From a virus, in the IMG/VR virus record IMGVR_UViG_3300011443_000070: 19,746 nt of DNA, one strand, 5' to 3'. Position numbers and translations under genes: made by a program. The notes below the pieces were generated by a model. It made no database searches. It had not been told where the DNA came from and saw nothing but the letters and a program-made list of their open reading frames with translations. Shown here piece after piece: positions 1 to 19,746 of the stretch. How positions within the stretch are numbered: the first letter of the stretch is position 1; each line of letters opens with the position of its first letter.

Positions 1-123
1 CGCGCCACGTCGTGATCCGTGGTGTAGCACTGCACGAGGCAGCCGTGGTCGGTCGTCAGCGTGAGCGTCGTTTTGCCGGTCGTCTTCGAGCGCGTGCCCG
101 CCGTGATCGTCCCGGTCACCGCC
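1..123. repeat. Direct terminal repeat, copy 1 (identical to 19624-19746)
   Basis: Bases 1-123 (cgcgccacgtcgtgatccgt...cgtcccggtcaccgcc) reappear base for base at 19624-19746. The repeat lies inside a reading frame that stays open and in phase across the junction. Confidence 0.95.
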
Positions 124-1526: not shown

Positions 1527-1688
1527 TTAGGGCAACGTCACGCCGATCAGGCGCAACAGCAGGATCACAATCACGATCACGCCGACGACGCGCACGACGA
1601 CCTTAATCGGCGCCGGCATCGGGATCATGCTCTCGACGAGATAGATGATCACGCCGACGATCACGACGGCGAAGAGAATCGAGATCAT
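1527..1688 (-). CDS. 53-aa two-TM membrane protein (resembles Thivi_2564-type small membrane proteins); holin-like candidate
   Basis: Not in the ORF track. AGGAGG lies 5 nt before the ATG at 1688. Translation is MISILFAVVIVGVIIYLVESMIPMPAPIKVVVRVVGVIVIVILLLRLIGVTLP, with TAA at 1529-1527. It has two hydrophobic helices joined by a Pro-rich turn. Confidence 0.75.
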   Translation of the reverse strand: MISILFAVVIVGVIIYLVESMIPMPAPIKVVVRVVGVIVIVILLLRLIGVTLP

Positions 1689-2475: not shown

Positions 2476-5468
2476 CAGGCATCCGCCTTTCGAATCAGCA
2501 TGCGTAAGACGGATTCCAGCGACGTGGAGTTATTGCTTGCCGTCACGGTGAACTTCGGCGCGAGCCCACGGATCCCCAGCTCCGTGATCCCGACATCCTG
2601 AATCGTCAGCGTCTCGTGTATCGCGGGCGTCGTTACGTTGATCGTGACGTCCTTGCCGCTTTTCGTTTTGAGGTCGCGCGACGCATAGGTGACCGTCGCG
2701 AGCGGCCGGCTGTAGAGCTGGAGCTGCGCATCGCACACTTGGATCAAGCTGGCTTCCGATCGCCGCTCGTCGCTCCAGATGTGCTCGTAGATGCCATCGC
2801 CGCCGCCATCGAGCGCCGCCATGTAGGCTTGCGCGGCGAGGTCGTCCCGCTGCACCCACACATGGATCGGACTGTTCCGGATGATCGCCTCGATCACGCC
2901 TGACACGCCGACGAGCGCGGGCGCCGCCGTGATCGTGCTGTTGTAGCTGATGCTGGCGACAATCGCGCCCGGGCCGCTCGCCGGGACGCCCGTCAGCGCC
3001 GTCGCGGTGCGCCCCGTATAGCGCACCACCTGATCGCCGTTCCCGATCACGGCCCACCCGCCCGTCGTGGCGAAGGGCGCGGCGTTCGCGACGATGATCG
3101 TCGTCGCACCCGCCGGCACTTGCCCGCTGGGTTGCACGAGGCCGGACGTGTCGACCGCCGGCGGGGGCGCGCCCAGCGCGCTATCGGGCACAAAGTCACT
3201 CGTCACCTGGGTCGTATTGTTCGTAAACGCCCCAAGGAATTGCAGTGGCGTGACGTTCGCTTTCGACCGATACAGGCGCCGGTCGATCACGCCGACGCCG
3301 CCCAAGGGGGCCGTGACCTGCACGGCATTCGCCACGGCGGTATTCACGCTCGGCAGATTCGCGCCGAGCGCCGCCGTCGCTTTCGTGTCCGTGTAGGTCG
3401 TCGCCGTGTTGTTCGCGATCGTGTCGACGAGCCGATACGCGGACTGCCCCGGCGAGAAGCGATACAGCCGGCGCGCGGTGACGTTCGCCGGGCCGGTGAC
3501 AATTCCCGCGACCGGGATCGTCTGATAGCTGGTGCCGCCCGACGTGTCGACCGTGGGCGCGGCCGCATTCGCCGCGACCGACGCCGTGGTGTCGATGTAG
3601 GACGCCGGGCTGTTATGGCCGATCGTGGTCAGCAGCCGGAACGTCGCGCCGTTATCGGAGCGGTAGACCTTCCGCCCGACCGCCCGCCCATCGGCCGATG
3701 TCGGCACCGTCACCGTGGCCGAATCGCCAGGGGGCGTGCCGATCGCGCCTTCCCCGGCCCGGACTGCGCCCAGACTCGCCTCGCTCGCCCCATCCCGATA
3801 AAACAAATTCGGCAGGTTATCGGGGATCGTCGTGACGAGGCGCCAGGTGCCCGCCGAGTACCGATAGAGTTTCCGTCCCGTGGTGCGAGCGTCGGGGCTG
3901 GTCGCCACATACCCCAAGACAATCCGCGTCAGCAGGGGATCCGGCGGGAGGTCCACCACAAGTTGCGGACCGAGGGCCGACTCATAGCCGCCCACGAGAA
4001 ACGACAGGGCATACGCATACACCTGATCCACGATCAGTTGTCCGCCGGATTCATAATCGACCGTCTGTGACACAAAGGTTGGCCCGGGCGGCACGCTGGG
4101 CGCGATCGACGCACTCGCCGCCCCCGGGAGCGTTTCCCCGCCCCCGGCGATCGTGACCGTCGTCTGATACCGATAGCTCACGCCGTTCGCGAGATTCCCC
4201 ACGACTTTCCGGAGCGTCGCACTCGTCGCACTGGGACTGGGGACGCTAGTTCCGATCGTCGTCGTCACCCCTTGCCACGCGGGCGGCGAATCGGTTTCCC
4301 CACTGGCCGTGACGAACGTCACCGCGTAATAGTGCGTCCCGGCATCGACGGCCCCGCCGGCTTGCACCGCCCCCGGCACCGGGGGCGCGCTGGGCGTGGC
4401 GGTGGCGCCGACCGTGATCGCCGCGATCGGCCCCGGCAGGGATTCGCCCGCCGCGGTGACGAACGTGTAGGCATACCGATGGACGCCGGATTCCACGCCC
4501 GCCGCATCGAGCAGGGCCAGCCCCGGCACGGCCGAGGGTGCCGCGCCCGGCCCCACGAGGCCGCCCCCGCCGCCGAGCTGGACGCCCGTATACGTCAGGA
4601 CGCGGGACGCCGCGCCTTCGGGCGTGATTCCCGCGATCGCTTGGCCGCCGACCGGATTGAACATCTCCCCGTTTTCGAGGGGCACGACATCGGTCGCCGC
4701 CGCAATCGACGCGACAATCCGCGTGCTCGCGCCCTTCCCGAATACTCTCGTTCTGACTTGCGACTTATCGAGTGCCCAGGTGATCTGCGGGTCGTGCAGG
4801 AAGCGCCCAGGCGTATCGTCGATCGGATCGGGAGATGGTCCCGGCGGTGTGACGAACAGGTAGAGCGTCTTGTTCTCGAAATACCAGTAGCCGCCGATCA
4901 GCTTCGCGAGCGCGGTGAGGCAGCCTTTCATGCCGCCTTCCGAGCCGTCGAAGTTAATCGAGACGGCCGGGAGGTTCGCTTCCACGCCCGTACTGGAGAA
5001 GCCCGGGGCGAAGCTCGCGATCAAGTCCGCCGCGATCGTGGATGCCGAGACGTTCACATACGGCCGCAGCGGGCGGCGCCGATTCGCCCGCGCGGTATCG
5101 TCGATCGCCGTGACCGGGTGCAGCACCGTCGCGGGCCGCCCCTTATAGGTGCGCTCGACCGTCTGGAGTTCGCCGTTGAAGAGCAGTTGCGGCGTGGTGC
5201 TGTTGATCCAGACTTCGATCGGCGCGCCCACATTCGGGGCCGCGCCGTAAATCGTCAGCGCGCATGTGTTCGGCGCATCGAACACGAGATCGCGGATGGT
5301 CATCGACTTGTAGATCACGCGCATCGCGCTGCCCGGCGCCGTCACATCGATCCCGCCGATGATGATGCGGATGTGCGACAGGCGATCGTGCGCCAGCGCC
5401 GCCGTTAGATAATTCAGGCGGAAGTTATTCAGCCGCGCGGTGCCGAGAACGGCTGGCTGATACGCCAT
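2475..5468 (-). CDS. Large distal-tail / host-recognition protein, 997 aa, with two internal tandem repeat arrays
   Basis: TGATG overlap with the tape-measure gene. It lies immediately downstream of the tape measure. The N- and C-terminal regions look like tail tip/hub modules (…VVRYTGRTATALTGVPASGPG…, …IYEHIWSDERRSEASLIQVCDAQLQLYSRPLATVTYASRDLKTKSGKDV…). The central 500 aa is repetitive. Confidence 0.7.
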   Translation of the reverse strand: MAYQPAVLGTARLNNFRLNYLTAALAHDRLSHIRIIIGGIDVTAPGSAMRVIYKSMTIRDLVFDAPNTCALTIYGAAPNVGAPIEVWINSTTPQLLFNGELQTVERTYKGRPATVLHPVTAIDDTARANRRRPLRPYVNVSASTIAADLIASFAPGFSSTGVEANLPAVSINFDGSEGGMKGCLTALAKLIGGYWYFENKTLYLFVTPPGPSPDPIDDTPGRFLHDPQITWALDKSQVRTRVFGKGASTRIVASIAAATDVVPLENGEMFNPVGGQAIAGITPEGAASRVLTYTGVQLGGGGGLVGPGAAPSAVPGLALLDAAGVESGVHRYAYTFVTAAGESLPGPIAAITVGATATPSAPPVPGAVQAGGAVDAGTHYYAVTFVTASGETDSPPAWQGVTTTIGTSVPSPSATSATLRKVVGNLANGVSYRYQTTVTIAGGGETLPGAASASIAPSVPPGPTFVSQTVDYESGGQLIVDQVYAYALSFLVGGYESALGPQLVVDLPPDPLLTRIVLGYVATSPDARTTGRKLYRYSAGTWRLVTTIPDNLPNLFYRDGASEASLGAVRAGEGAIGTPPGDSATVTVPTSADGRAVGRKVYRSDNGATFRLLTTIGHNSPASYIDTTASVAANAAAPTVDTSGGTSYQTIPVAGIVTGPANVTARRLYRFSPGQSAYRLVDTIANNTATTYTDTKATAALGANLPSVNTAVANAVQVTAPLGGVGVIDRRLYRSKANVTPLQFLGAFTNNTTQVTSDFVPDSALGAPPPAVDTSGLVQPSGQVPAGATTIIVANAAPFATTGGWAVIGNGDQVVRYTGRTATALTGVPASGPGAIVASISYNSTITAAPALVGVSGVIEAIIRNSPIHVWVQRDDLAAQAYMAALDGGGDGIYEHIWSDERRSEASLIQVCDAQLQLYSRPLATVTYASRDLKTKSGKDVTINVTTPAIHETLTIQDVGITELGIRGLAPKFTVTASNNSTSLESVLRMLIRKADA
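3189..3878 (-). repeat. Coding repeat array B in the 997-aa protein: four copies of the R-(K/R)-(L/V)-Y-R ... (L/V)-x-T-I-x-x-N ... Y-x-D motif
   Basis: Copies are GRKLYRYSAGTWRLVTTIPDNLPNLFYRD (aa 531), GRKVYRSDNGATFRLLTTIGHNSPASYIDT (598), ARRLYRFSPGQSAYRLVDTIANNTATTYTDT (665) and DRRLYRSKANVTPLQFLGAFTNNTTQVTSDF (729), spaced about 66 aa apart. Confidence 0.8.
3966..4481 (-). repeat. Coding repeat array A in the 997-aa protein: four copies of the Y-x-Y-x-(T/S)-F-(V/L)-x-x-x-G-E-(S/T) motif
   Basis: Copies are HRYAYTFVTAAGESLPGP (aa 330), HYYAVTFVTASGETDSPP (378), SYRYQTTVTIAGGGETLPGA (431) and VYAYALSFLVGGYESALGP (483), spaced about 50 aa apart. Confidence 0.8.
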
Positions 5469-6919
5469 CAGTTCACCAGCGAGCCGCGTTGAATCTGGCT
5501 GCTAATCGTCTCGCCGACTTTGCGCGCGAGCCCGTCCTGCGTGTCGACCATGTTGAACGTGTTCGTGATCGTCGGCGTGCGCTGCGCAAGGCCCATCGAC
5601 AGCGCCCACGTCAAAAAGTCTTTCGGCGGCCCGCCGCCAATTTGCCCGCCGAGCATGCCCCCGCTGGGATTCTTGCGTTGATATTCGGCGAACACCGCCT
5701 CAAAGCCGCCGAGGCCATAGGTGATATTCCCGGTGTTAATTGGGACTGGCGCGTTGCCCGGTGACATTTGCGTCATGCCCGGCGCCACCTTCGCGGCTTC
5801 GGTCACGCTACGAAACACCGTGTCCAGCTTTTCGATCTTCGGCACGATCGCGTCGACGGTGCCGCCGGTCAGTTCCAGCATGGTCTTAAATTGATCGCCG
5901 TTCTCCGCCGCCACGGCGAACTGTTGGCCAACCGTGCGCATCCACGTATCGAGGGATTGCGTCTTGGGTTCGAGGGCGGCGAGCGTCGTGAGCTGTTCTT
6001 TATAGGCTCTATCGAGCGCGTTGATCTGAATCGTCGACAGGTTGCCCGCCGTCGCGATCGTCGTGAGGGATTGCCCCATCGCGATATACGCCGTCGCCGT
6101 CGCGGCCGCCGCCGGCTCAATCGTTTTGAGGGTGTCGCGCCAGCCGCCGCCCGCTTGATTCAATTCAAGTTGCGCCGCGTTGACTTTCTTGATGTGCGCC
6201 TCTTCGGCTTCGTGCCAGCCCTTGAGGATCTTCGCGTTCTCGGTCGCGCGTTGGGTGTAATACTCGATTGCCTCCCGGCTGATCCCGTAGTGCTGCGCGA
6301 GCTGTTGCACCGTGGAACTATGGTTCTTGAGCTCCGCGGTGATCTGCGGCATATCCGCTTTATGCGCCGTGATCTCCCGGTTCCAATCGGCGACACGTTG
6401 CGCCCCGGTGTTGAAACTCTCGGCGACTTCTTGATTGTGTTTCTTAATGATCTGCATCGCCGTGTCGAAGTCTTTGATCTCCCGGCCGGCGATCTGCGTG
6501 GCACGGGTGAGCACGTCCATCCCCGCCGCCGCGCGTTCTGCCGTGAACCCAGACCACGTGTCGACCACGCCCGCGATCGCTTTATCGAGCCCCGTAAATT
6601 CAAGGGCCATCGTCGTGATCGCATAGGTCGCCGTGCCCACACTCGCCGCGAGCCCGAGCGATCCCCAGAGGCCGAGCTTCTCGAACGTGATGCCCGACAC
6701 GTTCCCCAGCTCCTGAATCGCCCGAATCTGCGGGCCAATGTGGACCCCGAGCGCGGCGAGGGTTTTATCCGCCACGCCCAAGCCTTCGCTGAACTCGCCC
6801 ATCGCGCTGTCGGTATGCCCCGACGCGCTTTCGAGATCCTTTAACTTCACGACGGACTTATCGATCTCGAAGTGGAAGTCGGAGAAATCCGCCGTCATGA
6901 CGCCGGAGAGTTGCGCCAT
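5468..6919 (-). CDS. Tape measure protein, 483 aa
   Basis: It lies between the chaperone pair and the tail tip protein. The sequence is long, looks helical and is rich in Ala, Gln, Thr and Glu. It has a hydrophobic stretch (WGSLGLAASVGTATYAITTMAL) and a Gly-rich C-terminal region. Confidence 0.75.
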   Translation of the reverse strand: MAQLSGVMTADFSDFHFEIDKSVVKLKDLESASGHTDSAMGEFSEGLGVADKTLAALGVHIGPQIRAIQELGNVSGITFEKLGLWGSLGLAASVGTATYAITTMALEFTGLDKAIAGVVDTWSGFTAERAAAGMDVLTRATQIAGREIKDFDTAMQIIKKHNQEVAESFNTGAQRVADWNREITAHKADMPQITAELKNHSSTVQQLAQHYGISREAIEYYTQRATENAKILKGWHEAEEAHIKKVNAAQLELNQAGGGWRDTLKTIEPAAAATATAYIAMGQSLTTIATAGNLSTIQINALDRAYKEQLTTLAALEPKTQSLDTWMRTVGQQFAVAAENGDQFKTMLELTGGTVDAIVPKIEKLDTVFRSVTEAAKVAPGMTQMSPGNAPVPINTGNITYGLGGFEAVFAEYQRKNPSGGMLGGQIGGGPPKDFLTWALSMGLAQRTPTITNTFNMVDTQDGLARKVGETISSQIQRGSLVN

Positions 6920-7053
6920 TAAACGAGCGCCCCCTGATCCTGCTGGCGCGCCAGCACATCTTCGATCAGCACTTCATACACGGCTTGCGGCAACGCGCGG
7001 ATGTCGTCGTAACTCATGCCCATGATCTTGCACAGCGCGAGTGTGGTTCTCAT
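6919..7053 (-). CDS. 44-aa ORF in the -1 frame of the chaperone gene (T part of a G/GT-type pair)
   Basis: Not in the track. ATG at 7053 overlaps the TGA of the 118-aa gene (ATGA). Translation is MRTTLALCKIMGMSYDDIRALPQAVYEVLIEDVLARQQDQGALV. Its TAA overlaps the tape-measure ATG (TAATG). Confidence 0.6.
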   Translation of the reverse strand: MRTTLALCKIMGMSYDDIRALPQAVYEVLIEDVLARQQDQGALV

Positions 7054-7406
7054 GCGGTCACGGGTTCGGGGATTGTTTTTTTTTCCTCGACGGCGCGGCG
7101 ATTCGCGCGCAAGTGCGGCGCGAGCGCCTCGACGATCTCGTCCATCGTCGCCGTGTCGAGGTTGCGCAACGTCGCGCGCCGTTCGTCGACGGATTGCATC
7201 GGGCTGTAGGGAATCGGTTCGTTGCCCGCGCCGACGAACGACCAGCCGACGAGATACGCGAGGATCACCGGCAACGTGCGGGGCGCGGGTTCGGCTTCGA
7301 GGTCGAGCCCTTCGCCCGCGTTCAATTCTTTTTTGACGGTAATGAAGTCACCGTCCGAGAGCGGTAACCGCACCGACTCGGGCGTGACCATCCGACAGCG
7401 ACCCAT
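7050..7406 (-). CDS. Tail assembly chaperone (gpG-like), 118 aa
   Basis: AGGAGG lies 8 nt upstream of the ATG at 7406. It sits directly upstream of the tape measure. The N-terminal motif (LPLSDGDFITVKKELNAGE) resembles tail assembly chaperones, and the tail is acidic. Confidence 0.65.
   Translation of the reverse strand: MGRCRMVTPESVRLPLSDGDFITVKKELNAGEGLDLEAEPAPRTLPVILAYLVGWSFVGAGNEPIPYSPMQSVDERRATLRNLDTATMDEIVEALAPHLRANRRAVEEKKTIPEPVTA
7076..7084 (-). promoter_or_regulatory. Candidate -1 programmed frameshift site (A9 run on the minus strand)
   Basis: The zero frame reads GAG GAA AAA AAA ACA (E107 E108 K109 K110 T111). The heptamer A AAA AAA spans 7083-7077. The -1 frame is open from here (NNPRTRDR) into the 44-aa ORF, predicting a 162-aa fusion. 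Confidence 0.6.
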
Positions 7407-10748: not shown

Positions 10749-12551
10749 TTACGCCCCGGTGTAGGCCGCCGCGCTCAGGTAATAGACGGCCGCCGTCCGC
10801 GCTTTCAGCCAGGTCGTGGCGTGCTCGACACGGAACGCGACCTTGTTTTCCTGGAACATCGAGCGATACACCGTGGTATCGATCGGCGGATTCACGGGCG
10901 CCGAGTCCATCTGGATCGAGGCTTCACGGCTGACATCGATCCGCAACCCGCCCTGGTTCACGTAGAGGATCGACGGCGTGTGCACCAAGATCACGTTCGA
11001 CCCGGCCGTGTTACTGATCACCACGGGCCGGCCGTAGAGCGTGCCGCCCGCCGGGCTGACGCCCGCGAAGAGCGGCTGCGCGAGCGCGTTGAGGGACTGC
11101 GAGAGGCCCCACGCATTCGCCTCGTTCATAATCCACACGGACTCCGACAGGGGGAGATTCGCCGTGGTAAACGCGGTGACGGCTTTCTGGAGATCCGCCT
11201 TCGCCGCCGCACCGGTCACGCCCGAGGCGGCCGCCGTCGCCGCGCCATTCGTGATCGCGGCGGGATTCACGCCCGCGACAGCGGCGACAGCCGGCGTAAT
11301 GAATTGCGCGTCCAGGAACCGCGTCAGCCCGTCGATCATTTCCTTGCGAATGAGGGCTTCCGCCGAGGGCGACGAATTGCGGATCAGTTCCTCCGTCAGC
11401 ACGATGATCCCGGCCGCCTTGTGGAACGGCACCGTGATCGCGCCGAATTGCGCCGCCGTGACGGGTTTCGGGGCGCCTTCCCCCACCCAGCCATAGGTGC
11501 CGCCGCCGGTCTGGGAATTCACTAACGTATTCGCGGGAACCTCGGTCATCCCGGGAATCCGGCCGATGAGGATCGCCGCGCGCAGTAGTTCCAGAAAGGC
11601 GTTCGCCGATGGCGTGATCGGCACCAGGGGCCCCGCCCACGTGGCATCGGTCGTGTTCCCGGCCGCCACGGCCGCCTTAAACATCAGCTCGACTTCGGGC
11701 GTGTCTTTGTAGAATTGGGCGGCCTGCTGTGACTTGAACGTGTCACCGTTACCCAGCCCGAGACATTTCACATAGCGGATAAAGGGCACCCAATCCGGCA
11801 CCATTGACTTCACTTCGATATGCGGCACGGCCCCGGCGGGCGCCACGCGCCGCGCGCTCGCGAGCTGGAGCGTCTCCTGTTCGGCGAGCAGCGCCAGCTT
11901 TTTGTCGAACCCCGCGACGCGCTCTTTCCGGGCGTCCATATCGGCCGACGCCAGCAGATCGAGGGGTTCGCTGCCAGAGTCTTCCAACGTTTTTGCCATC
12001 CACGCCACGTCGGCCGCGCGCTTCGTCTGACACTCGGTGATCTGCTGTTGAATGGTCATCGGCTTCGCCCTTTCGCCTAATGCGGCGGATTTCACAGTGA
12101 GGATGGTGGCTTCGAGGTTCGCGGGCATCGTCACGAGGGACAACTCCGCGACTAGAGATTTCAGAATATGGAATCGGCCGCCGGTCAGCGCTTTCATCTC
12201 GACGGGCTTGAAGCCGATGGACGCGCCGCGAATCAAGCCGGCTTTCAGCGAATGCCAGGCTTCCTCGACGCGATCGCGCACCCGGCCGGCATCCGGCACG
12301 AAGGGCAGCGACGCCGTGAACGTCACCCCCTTTGCTGTGGGCGTATCGAAGACGACCGTGCCGACGGGTTGCGTCTGATCGTGGTGCAGTAAGAGGGGGA
12401 GGGGGTTCTGATACGTGACACCCAGGGGCTCGACGACATCCCCCACGCGATCCATCGTGGGCGTCGTCGCGATGCCGGTGATCACCCGGCGATCGGCATC
12501 GACGGACTTGACCGAGAGAACACTATAGGCCCGGTGCATCGGCGCCGTCAT
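10749..12551 (-). CDS. Prohead protease (S78/U35) - scaffold-like coiled coil - HK97-fold major capsid protein fusion, 600 aa
   Basis: The N-terminal 155 aa carry protease motifs (ITGIATTPTMDRVGDVVEP…LLLHHDQTQPVGTV…GASIGFKP…LVAELSLVTMPANLEA). The middle is a charged, helix-like linker. The C-terminal region carries capsid motifs (…GTYGWVGEGAPKPVTAAQFGAITVPFHKAAGIIVLTEELIRNS…EMIDGLTRFLDAQFI…). Confidence 0.9.
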   Translation of the reverse strand: MTAPMHRAYSVLSVKSVDADRRVITGIATTPTMDRVGDVVEPLGVTYQNPLPLLLHHDQTQPVGTVVFDTPTAKGVTFTASLPFVPDAGRVRDRVEEAWHSLKAGLIRGASIGFKPVEMKALTGGRFHILKSLVAELSLVTMPANLEATILTVKSAALGERAKPMTIQQQITECQTKRAADVAWMAKTLEDSGSEPLDLLASADMDARKERVAGFDKKLALLAEQETLQLASARRVAPAGAVPHIEVKSMVPDWVPFIRYVKCLGLGNGDTFKSQQAAQFYKDTPEVELMFKAAVAAGNTTDATWAGPLVPITPSANAFLELLRAAILIGRIPGMTEVPANTLVNSQTGGGTYGWVGEGAPKPVTAAQFGAITVPFHKAAGIIVLTEELIRNSSPSAEALIRKEMIDGLTRFLDAQFITPAVAAVAGVNPAAITNGAATAAASGVTGAAAKADLQKAVTAFTTANLPLSESVWIMNEANAWGLSQSLNALAQPLFAGVSPAGGTLYGRPVVISNTAGSNVILVHTPSILYVNQGGLRIDVSREASIQMDSAPVNPPIDTTVYRSMFQENKVAFRVEHATTWLKARTAAVYYLSAAAYTGA

Positions 12552-12582: not shown

Positions 12583-12774
12583 TTAAGAACTCTTAATACG
12601 GAATTGCAGCCAGAGGCGCACGAGTTGGGAGATCGTCATGTCGTGCTGTGTGGCGGTTTTACAGATGGTGTCGTATTCCTGCGTCGTCACCCACGCGGAC
12701 ACAATCGCGCCGTCCTTTGGCTTCGGCGTGTCCACGCGCGGGCGCCCGCGCGGCCGGCCGGTTGGGAGCGTCAT
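12583..12774 (-). CDS. Small DNA-binding protein, ribbon-helix-helix-like with an RGRPR AT-hook, 63 aa
   Basis: ATGA overlap with the terminase stop. The sequence is MTLPTGRPRGRPRVDTPKPKDGAIVSAWVTTQEYDTICKTATQHDMTISQLVRLWL. It shows a strand-helix-helix pattern after a basic arm. Confidence 0.55.
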   Translation of the reverse strand: MTLPTGRPRGRPRVDTPKPKDGAIVSAWVTTQEYDTICKTATQHDMTISQLVRLWLQFRIKSS

Positions 12775-14435
12775 ACCACCATCACCGCGTAGGTGGTATC
12801 GCCTTGCCCATCCCGATGCATGACATCGAGCGCCGTCACGAGCGCCGACACGCCGTCAATCCGCTCGGTCGATTTTTCCTTACTCGGCTGGATATTCCCC
12901 GCTGCGTCGATTTCGATCGCCACGTTGCCGATATTCCAGCGCATGACGGGGTGCCCATCGTGGTGCAGCCGCCCCATCAGGACCGCCGATTCCAGCGCCT
13001 TCGAGGGCGAGGAGAGTTCGCCCTTCGTCTGCCGCACCTTCACGCACGGCCGCGCATCGTCCTGTTCGAGTTGCCGGATCAGTTCGACGGCGTTATACGG
13101 GTCATACGCGATCAGGCGCACGTCGTAGCGCTCACAGAGGTCGTTGACATACGCCCGCACGAGCTGCTGGTTGATGTCCATGCCGGGGCACGCCGTCAAT
13201 TGGCCGCGCCGCGCCCATTCGTCATACGGCACGCGGTCCCGCGTCACGCGCTCGGGGATCCGCCCCGCCGGCACGAAGAAATGCGGCAACACCGAAAAGC
13301 CCGATCCGCTGTCATCCGGGAAGAGCGTCACCACGGCCGTCAGGTCTGTCGTGCGACTGAGGTCGAGCCCGACATAACAGCGGCGCCCCTTGAAGGCGTC
13401 CCAGTCGATTGGCCCTTGGCAGGCGTCCCAATCGGCGAGCGCCAACCAGCGTGTGTCCTGTTCTGTCCACTGGTTAAGGAATAATCGGCGAAAACTGTTC
13501 TCTTGCGCGGGGATCGCTTTCGCCCGCGCGCACGCAATCCGCATATCTTCCAGCGATCGAAAATCCCCGAGCGCCGGGTTGCACGCCTTCCACACCTTCT
13601 CATCCGTCCAGTCCGCCTCTGGCGGCGCTTCGAAAATCAGCGGCAGGAATGTTGGATCGAGCTTGGGATTCTCCTGCACCTTCTTCGCGTGCGAATACAG
13701 CTCCCACAAGATGGAATGGCGATCGAAGCCGGCCGTGGAGATGATGAGATACAGCGGCTGCGTGCGCCCGCCCATCGACGTGCTCAACACATCATGCAAG
13801 CGCCGATCGCCCGCCGCGTGCATTTCGTCATACACGCAGAGGTGCGCGTTGTAACCCCATTTCGTGTAGGCCTCCGCCGAGATCGCGCGATACTTGCCCC
13901 CGCTCGCCTCATGCTCGATCCGCTTCTGTGAATCGACGATATACGTCGCCGCCACGAGCGCGGGATCGTTGCGGATCATCTGCGCCGCCACGTTGAACAC
14001 AATCCCCGCCTGGTCCTTGTCGGCCGCCGCGCTATACACCTCCGCGCCGGCTTCCCCATCAGCCAAGAGCCCATACAGGGCGATCGCCGCCGCCAGCTCG
14101 GACTTCCCGTTCTTGCGCGGCAGCATGAGCAGGCACGTCCGATACTGCCGCTGCCCGTCGCGCCGCTTCTTGAAAATCTTCTTGACGATCCGGACTTGCC
14201 ACGGCCGCAGCTTGAACGTCTGCCCCGCGAACGCGCCCTTGGTATGCGTCAGGCGATTAATGAACGCGATCGGATCTTGAGGGGGTGCGGCTTGCCCGAT
14301 CGCGACCCCGTGCCGCCGGGGTTGCTTAGCGTTCCACCCGCCAGCGCGGGACTTTTCACGGGGGATCTCAGCCAGTTTGGGCATAGATCTTATGGACATT
14401 TGCCGCGTGAATGGCCCGGGTGGTTTGGGGCGCAA
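12771..14435 (-). CDS. terL: Terminase large subunit (Terminase_1 family), up to 554 aa; start uncertain (TTG 14435, ATG 14399 or ATG 14384)
   Basis: Matches include FKLRPWQVRIVKKIF, LPRKNGKSELAAAIALYGLLADGEAGAEVYSAAADKDQA (Walker A region), VYDEMHA (Walker B), ISTAG, WKACNPALG, and a C-terminal nuclease region (GLDLS…YDPYN…DGVSALVTAL). Confidence 0.95.
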   Translation of the reverse strand: MRPKPPGPFTRQMSIRSMPKLAEIPREKSRAGGWNAKQPRRHGVAIGQAAPPQDPIAFINRLTHTKGAFAGQTFKLRPWQVRIVKKIFKKRRDGQRQYRTCLLMLPRKNGKSELAAAIALYGLLADGEAGAEVYSAAADKDQAGIVFNVAAQMIRNDPALVAATYIVDSQKRIEHEASGGKYRAISAEAYTKWGYNAHLCVYDEMHAAGDRRLHDVLSTSMGGRTQPLYLIISTAGFDRHSILWELYSHAKKVQENPKLDPTFLPLIFEAPPEADWTDEKVWKACNPALGDFRSLEDMRIACARAKAIPAQENSFRRLFLNQWTEQDTRWLALADWDACQGPIDWDAFKGRRCYVGLDLSRTTDLTAVVTLFPDDSGSGFSVLPHFFVPAGRIPERVTRDRVPYDEWARRGQLTACPGMDINQQLVRAYVNDLCERYDVRLIAYDPYNAVELIRQLEQDDARPCVKVRQTKGELSSPSKALESAVLMGRLHHDGHPVMRWNIGNVAIEIDAAGNIQPSKEKSTERIDGVSALVTALDVMHRDGQGDTTYAVMVV

Positions 14436-14474
14436 CGACTTACAGACATTTCGACCACCCCCCCTAACATTCGA

Positions 14475-14798
14475 TCACATTCCCAATCCGGTCTTGCGAT
14501 GATGACAGTCGCTGCACAGCGCCTGGAGGTTGTTTCGATTCCAGAACAATTCGGGATCACCGTCATGTTTCACAATGTGGTCGACCTCAAGCTGGGAATG
14601 AATCACCCCACACTGTGCGCAGGTATATCCACACTCCACAAGCACCCGCTCTCGTTCCCGCTTCCACCGGTCACGATAATACAGGCGCCGGATGATGCGG
14701 TTCGGGCGTTGCTGTTCCTTCACCCGCGCATGGGTGGGACAGCGGCCCTTGGGGACCAGCACACCGCAGCCGGGCGCCGCACAGAATTGACTAGGCAT
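14475..14798 (-). CDS. HNH endonuclease (terminase-associated type), 107 aa
   Basis: It has an N-terminal Cys knuckle (QFCAAPGCGVLVPKGRCPTH) and an HNH core (CAQCG…LEVDHIVKHDGDPELFWNRNNLQALCSDCHHRKT). It lies immediately upstream of terL, as in HK97-like cos phages. Confidence 0.93.
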   Translation of the reverse strand: MPSQFCAAPGCGVLVPKGRCPTHARVKEQQRPNRIIRRLYYRDRWKRERERVLVECGYTCAQCGVIHSQLEVDHIVKHDGDPELFWNRNNLQALCSDCHHRKTGLGM

Positions 14799-14886
14799 GC
14801 CAGACCCGGCCGCAGACGTTGCAATACCACCAGGATCCGATCCGTTCGACCATCCGACCCTCTTCGCCGCAATAGGGGCAGCGCAT
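14791..14886 (-). CDS. 31-aa Zn-ribbon micro-ORF (MRCPYCGEEGRMVERIGSWWYCNVCGRVWHA)
   Basis: Not in the track. Its ATG overlaps the upstream TAA (TAATG). Its TAG lies inside an 8-nt overlap with the HNH start. It has two CxxC pairs and a paralogous segment inside the 130-aa protein. Confidence 0.65.
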   Translation of the reverse strand: MRCPYCGEEGRMVERIGSWWYCNVCGRVWHA

Positions 14887-15014
14887 TAGGGTTGCCCTTG
14901 TGGGCAGGGCGTGCGGGGTTGCGTGCCCACATCGATCCGCCCTTCGATCGCACAGGCCATGGTCCCGATCGCGACGAGGGTGAGGGCGATGAGGACATAA
15001 TCACGGACTCGCAT
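14886..15014 (-). CDS. 42-aa membrane/secreted micro-protein (MRVRDYVLIALTLVAIGTMACAIEGRIDVGTQPRTPCPQGQP)
   Basis: Not in the track. The ATG at 15014 is in frame with, and one codon past, the TGA of the 130-aa gene. It has an N-terminal hydrophobic helix and a C-terminal tail paralogous to the 57-aa ORF at 15586-15759. Confidence 0.6.
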   Translation of the reverse strand: MRVRDYVLIALTLVAIGTMACAIEGRIDVGTQPRTPCPQGQP

Positions 15015-15017
15015 AGG

Positions 15018-15410
15018 TCATTCGCGATGCCCAATCCAGCGGCGCAGGGTGTCAAGCGGGTTATACTGGGATCGTCCGCGAGGCCCGGGCCGGGCGTCAC
15101 ACTGCTGTTGGCTTGACACCGGAAACTCCCGCACGCCTTGCGGATTTGCCTCGGGCTCTGGCTCGGGATACCACTGCACCATATGGCAGACCGGGCAGGT
15201 CGTATACGGGCCGCTCCACCACAGTTCATGACGCGGACACCATTGCGGCGGATGCCCTACCTGACTCATCGCTGCCCTATCCTCACCACAGTAGGGGCAC
15301 CGCATTACTTCCCCGCTCGCGTCTTTCGCATGTGGCGTGGTATCCACGTGCCGCGGGCACCGTCCACGGGGCACAAGCTCCCCACATCCACGCTCGGCGC
15401 AAAACTGCAT
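15018..15410 (-). CDS. Cys-rich protein, 130 aa: HNH-N-terminal-like knuckle, Zn-ribbon-like segment, novel tail ending RRWIGHRE
   Basis: The ATG at 15410 overlaps the upstream TAA (TAATG). MQFCAERGCGELVPRGRCPRH parallels the HNH N-terminus. MRCPYCGED…WW…CPVCHMVQW parallels the 31-aa Zn ribbon. No HNH catalytic core is visible. The track gives a 140-aa version from 15440. Confidence 0.65.
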   Translation of the reverse strand: MQFCAERGCGELVPRGRCPRHVDTTPHAKDASGEVMRCPYCGEDRAAMSQVGHPPQWCPRHELWWSGPYTTCPVCHMVQWYPEPEPEANPQGVREFPVSSQQQCDARPGPRGRSQYNPLDTLRRWIGHRE

Positions 15411-15553
15411 TACGCGGGCCGCTCCATTTCCGCGATCCAATACTCGATCGCGTTTTGTATCGTGGTGGCTAGTTTTAAAACGAGCCCATCACGTATAAGC
15501 CCTGGCGGGTGGGTGACTACCTGCTCGGCAAGTGCCACCACCCGCGGATCCAT
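15410..15553 (-). CDS. Hypothetical 47-aa protein (MDPRVVALAEQVVTHPPGLIRDGLVLKLATTIQNAIEYWIAEMERPA)
   Basis: The internal ATG of the 84-aa track ORF is chosen because the longer version overlaps the better-supported 57-aa TM ORF in another frame. Confidence 0.4.
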   Translation of the reverse strand: MDPRVVALAEQVVTHPPGLIRDGLVLKLATTIQNAIEYWIAEMERPA

Positions 15554-15585
15554 TTCTCGGATCTTTTTCCGTGCGTTACTTTCTT

Positions 15586-15759
15586 TCACGGCTCCGCTTG
15601 CGGGCACGGCGTTTGTGTGGGGGATTGCCCATCCGCTAAATGCCCTTCGATCGCCAGGGAGCAAGCGATCGCAAATGACAGCATGGCGAGCATGAGACTT
15701 ACGATCGCCACGGTTAGTAGTTTGGGAATAAGCCGTTCTAGTTGCTGATTCGTAAGCAT
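15586..15759 (-). CDS. 57-aa membrane/secreted micro-protein (MLTNQQLERLIPKLLTVAIVSLMLAMLSFAIACSLAIEGHLADGQSPTQTPCPQAEP)
   Basis: Not in the track. Its ATG overlaps the TAA of the DUF1064 gene (TAATG). It has one hydrophobic helix. The C-terminal motif AIEG-x5/6-(Q/S)P-x(1-2)-TPCPQ-x-x-P is shared with the 42-aa ORF. Confidence 0.6.
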   Translation of the reverse strand: MLTNQQLERLIPKLLTVAIVSLMLAMLSFAIACSLAIEGHLADGQSPTQTPCPQAEP

Positions 15760-16196
15760 TACTCGATCTCCACGATGGTGATCCCGTGGTTGGCTTCTAC
15801 GATCTTCTTCCGTAACTGATACGCCTCAGTCTTTGTGGGTTTACTCTTCACATCCTCGACGATCCACGCGCCGAGGCGGTGATCCCGATACTTGAAATCC
15901 GCATGGAACATGCCCACGGTGTGCAGGATCTCGGGGCCACCATCCCGAAATAACTCCTTCACGATCAAGGGAAAGCCGGGGTGAATCTCGATACTGGAGA
16001 TCCGGCCCGCTTGTGCGAGCAGCTTCAGTTCCTGATACCGGGCGGCTTCCCGCTGACTGTCGAAGAGGATGCCATCGACGCGCACGGCATGCGCCTGATA
16101 CTTATTCGTGCTGGGGCGCGTGTTGACGGTGAGTTTCGCACCTGACACGGTGTCATGGGTTTTGGCCCACTGCGTCCAACCGGCCCGATCACTCAT
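15759..16196 (-). CDS. DUF1064-family nuclease (RecU/resolvase-like PD-(D/E)xK), 145 aa
   Basis: NKYQAHAVRVDGILFDSQREAARYQELKLLAQAGRISSIEIHPGFPL…FHADFKYRD…IVEDVKSKPTKTEAYQLRKKIVEANHGITIVEI matches the DUF1064 consensus closely (NKY…DGIxFDSxxEAxRYxELKLL…ADFxY…VEDVKG…T…YxLKxK). Confidence 0.85.
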   Translation of the reverse strand: MSDRAGWTQWAKTHDTVSGAKLTVNTRPSTNKYQAHAVRVDGILFDSQREAARYQELKLLAQAGRISSIEIHPGFPLIVKELFRDGGPEILHTVGMFHADFKYRDHRLGAWIVEDVKSKPTKTEAYQLRKKIVEANHGITIVEIE

Positions 16197-16299
16197 CGAG
16201 ATAGTCCCACGGGATGCGCCGCCAAAGCACGATCAGGCGAATCGCAATCGCCACCGTGACGATCACCAGCACGACGAACACCACAACCCACGCATTCAT
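16189..16299 (-). CDS. 36-aa single-TM micro-protein (MNAWVVVFVVLVIVTVAIAIRLIVLWRRIPWDYLDE)
   Basis: Not in the track. It has an ATGA overlap with the lipoprotein stop and an 8-nt overlap (ATGAGTGA) with the DUF1064 start. It has a hydrophobic core and a charged C-terminus. Confidence 0.6.
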   Translation of the reverse strand: MNAWVVVFVVLVIVTVAIAIRLIVLWRRIPWDYLDE

Positions 16300-16862
16300 C
16301 GGTGCCCCACCCAGCGGCGGACGGTTTCGAACGGCAAGACGCCCCAGCGCACCATCGTCGGGCTGTCAGTTGGACCCGGACAGTGATTCCCCAGCACGTC
16401 CACGATCCAGATGCCGGTGTCGCCCGCGCTCGCCCGATACGCCACGACATCCCGCGCTTTCGTGATGCAGTTCGCGTCTTTACACAAATACCCCCAGCGG
16501 GCGTCACGTTGGCTCAGGACGCCAATCAGGCCATCGAGGAAGGCCCAGGCCGCGTCGCCGTCGGTGAGCTGGCAGGAGTGCGTCACCTGGGCCGGATGGT
16601 CGGCCGCATACTGCCGCGCCACGCCCTCGCCGTAGGCCGGCAGCGGTAGAGCACCCCCAGGGGAAGACGGGGGCGTGCCGGGAGTCGGCTCAGGCGTGGT
16701 CGCGGTATCGCTGCGGTCGACGGTCACCGTGGTCGTATTCGTGACGGTGACGTTGCCCGGGGCCGTGGGCGCCTGCACGACAGGCGAGGGCATCGTCAAG
16801 GCGATGTCACAGCCGAGACTGGTGAGGGCGAGGAGGAGGATTAGTATCCGCAATCGGCACAC
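16296..16862 (-). CDS. Predicted lipoprotein, 188 aa, ending RRWVGHR
   Basis: GTG start. The signal-like N-terminus MCRLRILILLLALTSLGC has a Cys at position 18. A Thr/Pro-rich linker and a Cys-containing globular domain of unknown family follow. Confidence 0.6.
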   Translation of the reverse strand: MCRLRILILLLALTSLGCDIALTMPSPVVQAPTAPGNVTVTNTTTVTVDRSDTATTPEPTPGTPPSSPGGALPLPAYGEGVARQYAADHPAQVTHSCQLTDGDAAWAFLDGLIGVLSQRDARWGYLCKDANCITKARDVVAYRASAGDTGIWIVDVLGNHCPGPTDSPTMVRWGVLPFETVRRWVGHR

Positions 16863-19534: not shown

Positions 19535-19746
19535 CGGTCGCCTCCGCGAGTGTGACGATCTCCCCGCTGTCCAGCAGCGTGACCGTCACAGGCGTCTTAA
19601 CTTCCTTGTAACGGGTGACCGCCCGCGCCACGTCGTGATCCGTGGTGTAGCACTGCACGAGGCAGCCGTGGTCGGTCGTCAGCGTGAGCGTCGTTTTGCC
19701 GGTCGTCTTCGAGCGCGTGCCCGCCGTGATCGTCCCGGTCACCGCC
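19521..19746 (-). CDS. C-terminal part of the wrap-around annealing protein (OB-fold-like tail)
   Basis: The track ORF 19521..19742 (TGTITAGTRSKTTGKTTLTLTTDHGCLVQCYTTDHDVARAVTRYKEVKTPVTVTLLDSGEIVTL) is the same frame as the ORF leaving base 1: 872 minus 119 is a multiple of 3, and 19742 equals position 119 of the repeat. Joined length is 975 nt, or 324 aa. Confidence 0.8.
   Translation of the reverse strand, partial: AVTGTITAGTRSKTTGKTTLTLTTDHGCLVQCYTTDHDVARAVTRYKEVKTPVTVTLLDSGEIVTLAEATDAAF
19624..19746. repeat. Direct terminal repeat, copy 2 (identical to 1-123)
   Basis: Same 123 bases as the window start. This implies a 19,623-bp unit that is circular or terminally redundant. Confidence 0.95.

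Follow-up and report, generated by a model that had tools for sequence, protein, structure and literature searches.

In phages, HNH endonucleases (HNHEs) that adjoin the cohesive-end site (cos) and the terminase, and that carry an extra zinc-ribbon domain at the N- or C-terminus, have been described, and in the arrangement termed 'Group 4' a separate zinc-ribbon protein (ZRP) is encoded side by side with the nuclease, immediately upstream or downstream of it, and is sometimes fused to it (PMC3592412, Xu & Gupta 2013). Also described are small phage lipoproteins, namely Llp (T5), Cor (T1, phi80 and N15) and Rtp45, which act periplasmically on an outer-membrane protein (PMC9586334, PMC12685063), and on the bacterial side LptM, a very small lipoprotein that acts on the envelope (PMC12685063). 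Here we consider a cassette of small genes between positions 14475 and 15759 of the virus record IMGVR_UViG_3300011443_000070, the window being this whole stretch of 19,746 nucleotides (nt); all positions are window coordinates, the cassette and its neighbours all lie on the minus strand, and related contigs are designated by L numbers. The explanation that we favour, at a probability of about 0.6, is that the cassette is the mosaic right end of the genome of a small soil phage, in which one decayed and one intact packaging-nuclease module have come together, each preceded by a gene for a predicted mini-lipoprotein (Lpp, with the paralogues Lpp57 and Lpp42) that would have an accessory role in the host envelope.

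The two peptides are related, as an earlier note made from the sequence had proposed (16 of 45 residues identical, E=3e-7 in a pairwise BLASTP comparison), and the open reading frames (ORFs), motifs and 12-nt identity (GCGATCGAAGGG, repeat D8) that it described all lie on the minus strand where it had placed them; apart from those 12 nt the DNA of the two genes is diverged. No Pfam, NCBIfam or PHROG family matches Lpp42 or Lpp57 above threshold, and the models LPAM_1 and LptM_cons give sub-threshold matches on the signal region. With a profile made from three peptides, 13 clusters were recovered; when 1.84 billion representatives were searched exhaustively by profile, 33 matched at E<=1e-3, nearly all of 37-79 amino acids (aa); and a broader profile in a word-indexed search reached 62 clusters; the Lpp57 protein itself is listed in 59 blocks of a public assembly collection. 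Homologues were absent from 50,697 cultured or deposited phage records (tblastn, nothing beyond E~4) and from the 185,579 GTDB species representatives. One member carries the label 'LptE/RlpB' at the Joint Genome Institute (JGI), which was set aside, since Pfam gives only a sub-threshold LptM_cons match on its signal region and hence no evidence of homology. By sequence comparison, Lpp appears as a new conserved family of about 60 clusters, seen in metagenomic phage contigs only and under selection at the protein level.

Members of the family share a basic N-terminus, a hydrophobic stretch, an Ala-Cys lipobox, a membrane-proximal core, (G/S)(V/L)AI(E/Q/S)GR(I/V)(D/E)VG, a linker of variable length and Pro-Cys-Pro at or near the C-terminus. 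The Ala-Cys pair is invariant in a first alignment of 14 sequences and conserved to at least 90% in a wider one, and the mature part of the 16 members scored has 22-30 aa with 3-5 Pro and exactly two Cys, one at the lipid site and one in the terminal Cys-Pro. The signal peptide of Lpp57 leads to the lipobox AIAC (Cys33) and a 25-aa mature peptide (CSLAIEGHLADGQSPTQTPCPQAEP), that of Lpp42 to TMAC (Cys21) and a 22-aa mature peptide (CAIEGRIDVGTQPRTPCPQGQP). A PROSITE PS51257-type rule accepts 15 of the 16 members tested, Lpp57 failing only the clause 'K/R in the first 7 residues', and as a control the lipoprotein-signal rule picks out only Lpp57 and Lpp42 among the 139 six-frame window ORFs of 30-80 aa. 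These features strongly suggest that the precursors are exported, lipid-modified on the lipobox Cys and cleaved, which would leave a membrane-tethered, Pro-rich extracytoplasmic peptide of 22-30 residues with a strand-like conserved segment next to the anchor, a variable linker and one free Cys in the terminal Cys-Pro. The small exported peptides of the earlier note are thus both conserved and predicted to be exported; its suggestion of a holin/antiholin pair finds no support, as the invariant Ala-Cys lipobox points to lipoproteins and not to plain membrane helices.

Selection was assessed by a codon test on motif-anchored ungapped blocks. In the xPCP block, 106 of 148 differences are at third codon positions, synonymous codon pairs outnumber non-synonymous ones by 91 to 24, Ser is encoded by both codon families (AGC and TCN), and the coding frame gives an amino-acid identity of 0.87, compared with 0.41 and 0.43 for the two alternative frames. 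The statement that conservation is at the protein level while the DNA has diverged is borne out by these counts.

The usual context of Lpp is DUF1064 - Lpp - (zero to two small genes) - HNH - contig end (L092, L096, L098, L101/102, L106/107, L110 and L112). The gene for the DUF1064 nuclease precedes Lpp in L092, L096, L098, L101/102, L106, L110 and L112, directly so in many contexts, and the neighbours in relatives are nucleases, Zn ribbons and soluble small proteins. In L083 the order is Lpp-ZRP-HNH, followed by a different terS/terL pair, in L093 Lpp lies downstream of HNH, and in L108 and L109 it follows tail genes, in L108 beside an integrase and repressor region; all of these contexts are phage contigs. 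The profile and synteny checks proposed for the micro-ORFs thus reveal a conserved family whose place, in most contexts between DUF1064 and HNH, is conserved as well. Neither the DUF1064-terL interval of the three closest relatives nor any of 78 other contigs with a related terL contains Lpp, which accordingly has the character of an accessory gene within a single phage clade. In L106, a 37-kb JGI contig, two cassettes face each other (4570-7279), DUF1064-Lpp-61aa-HNH and, in reverse, HNH'-61aa-Lpp-DUF1064, the second HNH being called at only 74 aa, with its 5' part missing; the arrangement resembles a head-to-head joining of two genome ends, whether an assembly chimera or a real end-to-end junction.

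A gene of the Lipo188 family lies upstream of Lpp on the same strand in every context with enough upstream DNA, with an overlap of 4 nt between the pair in L108. Lipo188 has the lipobox SLGC with Asp at position +2, a Thr/Asn/Pro-rich linker and a conserved, Cys-containing C-terminal domain of ~115 aa; the family, of ~170-200 aa, has a lipobox xGC and an acidic +2 residue in all homologues. Lipo188 had no match in Pfam or, by profile search, in the PDB, its homologues giving only sub-threshold matches in Pfam and PHROG scans, and a single-sequence structure model, mostly of strands, is unusable (predicted local distance difference test score 40, predicted TM score 0.22). A membrane mini-protein that always follows Lipo188, as in a split unimolecular spanin, was considered and rejected, TM36 being found in the window lineage only. 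Beside Lipo188 and Lpp in relatives there is also a Pro-rich family of 98-123 aa with an N-terminal ...ALITF..GGG, repeated DN(S/T)LPG and no signal peptide (L083 767-1138, L093 1181-1540, L108 5165-5461 and L109 3572-3898), which is absent from the window.

Lpp would be an accessory envelope factor in the same compartment as Lipo188, with which it possibly acts. By analogy with Llp, Cor and Rtp45, superinfection exclusion or receptor masking is the tentative first choice, at less than even odds; exclusion, already raised in the earlier note, is a live possibility. We lean towards it because Lpp is patchy among close relatives, occurs as two diverged paralogues and is dispensable for Lipo188, and because Llp and Rtp45 provide precedents. 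Like Lpp, those proteins are small phage lipoproteins that are accessory and variable among related phages, and strand pairing accounts for part of the binding by Rtp45; unlike Lpp, they are folded, of ~6-7 kDa and usually encoded beside receptor-binding genes, whereas Lpp has 2-3 kDa and lies beside nuclease and packaging genes. No similarity of Lpp to Llp, Cor or Rtp45 was found in Pfam, in PHROG or by tblastn of the 50,697 phage records.

The alternative that survives best is a spanin-like role in lysis, in which Lpp, perhaps partnered with Lipo188, would serve as an outer-membrane lipoprotein of the Rz1 kind and disrupt that membrane when infection ends, and it too is unlikely. The order Lipo188 then Lpp, overlapping by 4 nt in L108, resembles that of i-spanin and o-spanin, and both positions in which the pair occurs are classical lysis-cassette positions, as in lambda and HK97. 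Nuclease-split spanin pairs are known in Shivani and phiR201, and in the window the DUF1064 nuclease lies between the pair. An i-spanin-type gene, with an N-terminal membrane helix and a long helical periplasmic domain, is nevertheless missing, whether adjacent to Lpp, embedded or anywhere else in the genome, while Lipo188 is itself a lipoprotein whose low-confidence model is mostly strands and not a coiled coil, and it occurs without Lpp in L004 and L005. The mature part of Rz1 has 40 aa, compared with 22-30 aa in Lpp. Like o-spanins, Lpp is a small, Pro-rich, probably unstructured lipoprotein with a periplasmic Cys available for a disulfide, encoded near packaging genes or after tail genes, and its lipobox, small size, Pro-rich mature part and single periplasmic Cys are o-spanin hallmarks (lambda Rz1; PMC6139136). 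It differs from them in being patchy and accessory, in having two divergent copies in one genome, which a spanin would not need, and in being most conserved next to the lipid anchor and not at the C-terminus. No other spanin or endolysin family is recognisable anywhere in the closed genome, and the only lipoprotein candidates with a hydrophobic signal segment on the coding strand are Lipo188, Lpp57 and Lpp42. Homologues of Lipo188 give weak matches to 'Rz-like spanin' PHROGs (E 0.03-0.45), yet none of the spanin families in Pfam, PHROG or NCBIfam is significantly similar to Lpp, and the host may be without an outer membrane. An accessory envelope role such as exclusion is accordingly preferred to spanin-like lysis, with low confidence as to the role overall, and the probability that these two readings leave belongs to other roles.

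Colicin lysis (or release) proteins and entericidins A and B are precursors of ~40-60 aa that yield lipid-anchored, envelope-acting peptides, and the entericidins form a tandem paralogous pair. Together with LptM they resemble Lpp in precursor size and in giving lipid-anchored peptides of a few tens of residues, but they are bacterial, whereas Lpp is found in phage contigs only. None of the corresponding Pfam families matches Lpp above cut-off, LptM_cons reaching E 0.076-1.1 over model positions 1-15 only. It is conceivable, though doubtful, that Lpp and Lipo188 together form a new two-lipoprotein envelope system of soil phages, either a doubly lipid-anchored substitute for a spanin or an exclusion device. 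In the latter case, a lipopeptide of 2-3 kDa might dock through its AIEGRIDVG strand and terminal Cys onto an outer-membrane machine of the host, and two diverged paralogues might cover two variants of the target.

As to the origin of the cassette, the earlier note was right in seeing two related modules, but they are not a duplicated and shuffled pair: the cassette is, on the evidence of sequence comparison, a recombinational mosaic of two types of packaging-nuclease module, and both orders of ZRP and HNH are natural in relatives. Duplication in tandem within this genome, followed by divergence and reshuffling, might be suggested by the two similar sets of parts side by side and by the 12-nt identity and the motifs common to the peptides, and it is nonetheless distinctly improbable. 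The DNA of the HNH remnant in the upstream module (copy A) shares 92-96% identity with the HNH genes of L096, L097 and L098 at their 5' ends and only 55% with HNH107 of the downstream module (copy B); intact representatives of the two HNH types have ~39% protein identity, and Lpp42 is 73-76% identical to a peptide of L001, compared with 36% to Lpp57. The two gene orders occur separately in relatives, and L097 again shows both the succession 'Lpp - ORF59 - HNH' and the neighbours 'CPRH - Lpp'. What lies between DUF1064 and terL is quite different in the three relatives closest by terL. Two population variants, moreover, differ in patches: L086 has 32 mismatches and 2 gaps relative to the window at 14509-14697, confined to the 3' half of HNH107, and L104, otherwise identical, has nine changes in the CPRH tail at ~15020-15080, including TGG to TAG, which creates a stop. 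These patches are signs of ongoing recombination with relatives inside the cassette. Across the cassette no difference separates eight contigs of this phage, and the one variant, L086, departs from them solely by its HNH107 patch, so that population variation was uninformative as a measure of selection.

In the simplest course of events, recombination would have joined the two module types and made one HNH redundant, after which one copy decayed. Version A derives from another phage lineage, with the Zn-ribbon gene after HNH, and has lost its core by a frameshifting deletion of 248 nt; version B is the intact pair ZRP31 and HNH107, predicted to assist the terminase; and each version is preceded by one Lpp, Lpp57 and Lpp42, respectively.

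The 130-aa ORF of copy A records this decay. Its N-terminus is related to that of HNH107 (15 of 20 residues identical, E=2e-8) and its residues 36-52 to ZRP31 (E=8e-6, both by pairwise BLASTP), so that the reported similarity to a knuckle and a Zn ribbon, and the missing HNH core, are real; the fusion that had been read from them is not. In L001, L096, L097 and L098 the sequence MQFCAERGCGELV.RGRCPRHV... begins a full-length HNH of 117 aa, and the ATG of a Zn-ribbon gene overlaps its stop. Compared with the 354-nt HNH gene of L096, the window retains 74 nt at the start and 32 nt at the end, the 248 nt between them being gone (junction GTGGATACCAC to GCCACATGCG), and residues ~25-107 with the catalytic core are absent. 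Because 248 mod 3 = 2, the frame is shifted: the 3' remnant is read as PHAKDASGEV, the original frame being HMRKTRAGK-stop. In the same alternative frame L096 reads 'MPHAKDASGEVMRCPHCG', the string PHAKDASGEV being readable upstream of its ZRP start, and the 3' remnant and the ZRP start are identical to L096. With the old HNH stop bypassed, the ORF continues through the HNH 3' end into the ZRP gene, of which ~12 codons survive; they match the beginning (M(R/K)CPHCGEDR...) of the ZRP genes that follow HNH in L001, L096 and L098, with similarity ending after ~11 codons. From Met48 on, where public gene callers place the start, the C-terminal two-thirds of the supposed protein is a separate gene, CPRH83, with stand-alone homologues in L105 (P0015, 63 aa, directly after a Lipo188 homologue), L104 (P0014, 77 aa) and L097 (an ORF that begins 3 nt beyond the stop of DUF1064). 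Rather than a designed fusion, the 130-aa protein is a scar, a frameshifted HNH remnant read through a ZRP fragment into an unrelated, intact 83-aa gene, and CPRH83 is probably its only functional part.

That the module is nevertheless a functional three-part duplicate, whose 130-aa protein acts as a purposeful knuckle/Zn-ribbon fusion beside its own peptide, is very improbable. No stop, it is true, interrupts the frame between the HNH start codon and the end of CPRH83, but residues 26-35 are the HNH 3' end out of frame, the deletion is not a multiple of three, the Zn-ribbon gene is reduced to ~12 codons, and the remainder exists alone elsewhere and is called from Met48. The start overlaps the ORF59 stop (TAATG) as in intact relatives, and the ORF is identical in most public contigs carrying this phage; these carriers are one near-clonal population, so that their identity says nothing of selection, and the fused architecture is found in no other protein of a 5.8-billion-sequence database.

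Two side observations concern the CPRH proteins. They and Lipo188 have a common C-terminal tail, (D/E)T(V/L)RRW(I/V/M)GHR-stop (L105 1495-2201 included), the copies of which in the window (16296-16334 and 15025-15059) form a 35-nt repeat (D1) of 77% identity; the start of the next gene follows each tail immediately, and the tail may be either a C-terminal motif that these proteins have in common or a sequence that marks a recombination boundary. In L097 (30-350), the CPRH frame continues into the mini-lipoprotein without an intervening stop or start codon and with ~11 boundary codons fewer than in the window, which would fit a decayed copy, a real fusion with the signal as internal anchor, or an assembly error in this 1.8-kb contig.

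The weakest alternative, namely that the micro-ORFs are chance frames over a conserved DNA element such as a packaging or recombination site, can be given next to no credit: the core GCGATCGAAGGGCGGATC is near-invariant in DNA and contains GATC and CGATCG palindromes, the region is near cos and short conserved boundary sequences such as D1 occur here, but the third-position and synonymous excess, Ser codon-family switches included, is strong in the PCP block and at the lipobox Ala-Cys, frame, start, lipobox and stop are kept in ~60 diverged clusters with linker indels in multiples of three, and Lpp genes also lie far from cos, after tail genes.

The intact half of the cassette has a published counterpart. 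HNH107 matches PF01844 above cut-off (E=2e-6) and phrog_144 over residues 1-103 (E=5.3e-28), a region that includes its knuckle FCAAPGCGVLVPKGRCPTH, which reads as CxxxxC...CxxH; the HNH catalytic domain is present in HNH107 and fails in copy A, where the core is deleted. With its end at 14475 and the terL start at 14384, HNH107 adjoins the terminase and the putative cos, and together with ZRP31 it lies ~50 nt from the putative cos end, just upstream of terL. In L004 (29 aa), L005 (34 aa) and L083 (30 aa) a homologue of the ZRP immediately precedes an HNH of the same type, and in L001, L096 and L098 a ZRP homologue follows the HNH. By sequence, ZRP31 and HNH107 are the published Group 4 arrangement of a cos-associated HNHE and an adjacent ZRP, predicted to assist the terminase (PMC3592412). 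For this part the description as an undescribed module has to be withdrawn, while it stands for the peptides, which match no curated family. Group 4 pairs and nucleases of the HK97 gp74 type share with the locus the HNH on the cos and terminase side, an N-terminal zinc ribbon (CxxxxC...CxxH) and a separate small ZRP; the locus differs in having no small terminase gene between cos and terL, and an intact module together with a decayed module of the other order in one genome. Nicking and stimulation of the terminase by HNH107, and any role of the ZRP, are predictions only.

The position of cos is suggested by contig ends. In four lineages the contigs L001, L087, L088, L107 and L112 end 32-36 nt past a G-rich run downstream of HNH/ZRP, L087 and L088 at window position 14423, which suggests a physical genome end nearby. 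The cassette would then be the extreme right end of the virion DNA, and the longest terL ORF, from TTG at 14435, would not have the real start, whereas the ATG at 14384 fits.

Several points weigh against the favoured reading. Lipidation, localisation and function of Lpp are predictions, and the strict consensus [LVI][ASTVI][GAS]C fits only 5 of the 16 Lpp lipoboxes. The AIEG core is highly conserved in DNA as well and thus has little weight in the codon test, and the Lpp of L097 lacks a separate start codon and forms an in-frame fusion with the CPRH protein. Known exclusion lipoproteins are usually encoded beside receptor-binding genes, unlike Lpp in the window, and the host may be monoderm, which would change the reach of a tethered peptide. 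Lipo188 occurs without Lpp in L004, L005 and L105, and the co-occurrence of the two could merely reflect shared clade ancestry. Finally, cos is deduced from contig ends and not mapped.

The features of the region are collected in Table 1.

Table 1. Features of the right-end cassette and its neighbours (window coordinates)
Feature	Position	Strand	Evidence or remark
Lipo188, predicted lipoprotein	16296..16862	-	alignment of homologues; co-occurrence with Lpp
TM36, 36-aa single-helix membrane peptide	16189..16299	-	overlaps Lipo188 stop
DUF1064	15759..16196	-	PD-(D/E)XK nuclease; PF06356 E=1.7e-16; phrog_190 E=4.7e-26
Lpp57 (57-aa peptide, mini-lipoprotein paralogue A)	15586..15759	-	family hidden Markov model (HMM) E=1.6e-19
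ORF59 (the '47-aa ORF' of the earlier note)	15410..15589	-	predicted soluble; 59-aa homologue in L097
130-aa ORF	15018..15410	-	composite: HNH remnants, ZRP fragment and CPRH83
HNH 5' remnant, 74 nt, codons 1-25	15337..15410	-	L096/L097/L098-type HNH; encodes only the knuckle MQFCAERGCGELVPRGRCPRHVDTT
HNH 3' remnant, 32 nt	15305..15336	-	same L096/L097/L098-type HNH gene, out of frame
ZRP gene 5' fragment, ~12 codons (MRCPYCGEDRAA)	15270..15304	-	matches ZRP starts in L001, L096, L098
CPRH83, 83 aa, QWCPRHELWW...CPVCHMVQWYPEP, Zn-ribbon-like domain	15018..15269	-	stand-alone homologues elsewhere
Lpp42 (42-aa peptide, mini-lipoprotein paralogue B)	14886..15014	-	family HMM E=2.3e-21
ZRP31, 31-aa Zn-ribbon protein (CPYC...CNVC)	14791..14886	-	homologues upstream of same HNH type
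HNH107, intact cos-proximal HNH endonuclease, N-terminal zinc-ribbon knuckle	14475..14798	-	PF01844, phrog_144
G7 run and conserved stretch, putative cos near 14423	14423..14464	.	contig ends
terL, 537 aa from ATG at 14384	12771..14384	-	TerL_ATPase 2.1e-27, TerL_nuclease 2e-48, phrog_9 2e-164; 537-aa public gene call

The genes follow one another closely. Stop and start overlap as TAATG between DUF1064 and Lpp57, between ORF59 and the 130-aa ORF and between Lpp42 and ZRP31, and as GTGA between Lpp57 and ORF59; a 3-nt gap separates the 130-aa ORF from Lpp42, and the ZRP31 and HNH107 genes overlap by 8 nt. The ORF counted as 47 aa in the earlier note is present but is more likely 59 aa long, from a GTG at 15589 that shares nucleotides with the stop of Lpp57; in L097 a homologue of 59 aa (59% identity, E=2e-26) has the same place, between the mini-lipoprotein gene and a full-length HNH; ORF59 has no Pfam, NCBIfam or PHROG match. 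A promoter scan gave no promoter-like site on either strand of the cassette, no terminator was found on its coding strand, all terminator-like sites being on the non-coding strand, and no Rfam family matches within it. The DUF1064 protein is annotated in PHROGs as a Holliday-junction resolvase. The region is thus the co-directional, translationally coupled right end of a cos-type phage genome of ~19.6 kb.

The first and last 123 nt of the window (1-123 and 19624-19746) are identical, and the assembly is hence circularly closed at 19,623 bp, which is very small for a tailed phage with terL, portal, protease-capsid fusion and tail genes. The fusion is a 600-aa ORF (10749-12551, minus strand) with a head-maturation protease region (phrog_80) and a major capsid protein (phrog_617, Phage_capsid), and the gene order is terL - small ORF - protease/capsid - portal. 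There is no small-terminase gene between the putative cos end and terL (14384-14475); the scans run gave no terS-like signal apart from a match to Terminase_2 below threshold (E=0.009) in a 483-aa ORF at 5468-6919, and in L083 and L092 terS precedes terL. No integrase family was recognised among the window ORFs scanned. In the whole genome, only TM36, Lpp57, Lipo188, Lpp42 and a 53-aa two-helix ORF are coding-strand ORFs with a membrane-type hydrophobic segment; the last of these (1527-1688, minus strand), far from the cassette and just after tail-region genes, has two strongly hydrophobic helices and a holin-like form. As for the host, terL is at most ~46% identical to any cultured-phage record, the best being Firmicutes phages, and gives no clue. 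A cyanobacterial host was considered on account of the HIP1-like GCGATCGC and set aside, as its 6 sites, against 3.0 expected, are not significant (18 of 200 shuffles reach 6), and the only match among the 185,579 species representatives, a Byssovorax metagenome-assembled genome (L103), was spurious and due to a low-complexity kinase stretch.

What is new at this locus is the mini-lipoprotein family and its companion Lipo188, whereas the HNH and Zn-ribbon parts are known and the fusion and shuffling are ordinary mosaicism and gene decay. For annotation, the cassette is a clean example of a redundant HNH packaging nuclease decaying after mosaic recombination at a phage genome end, and an ORF that runs across such a scar should not be taken for a domain fusion. 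The practical significance is modest until host and phenotype are known. To date, the Lpp peptides appear to rank with the smallest of phage lipoproteins, all of them below the usual gene-size cut-offs, and should an action on the host envelope be borne out, whether for exclusion or for lysis, they would widen the known size range and design of such effectors and would offer a short lipopeptide scaffold with a defined binding motif.

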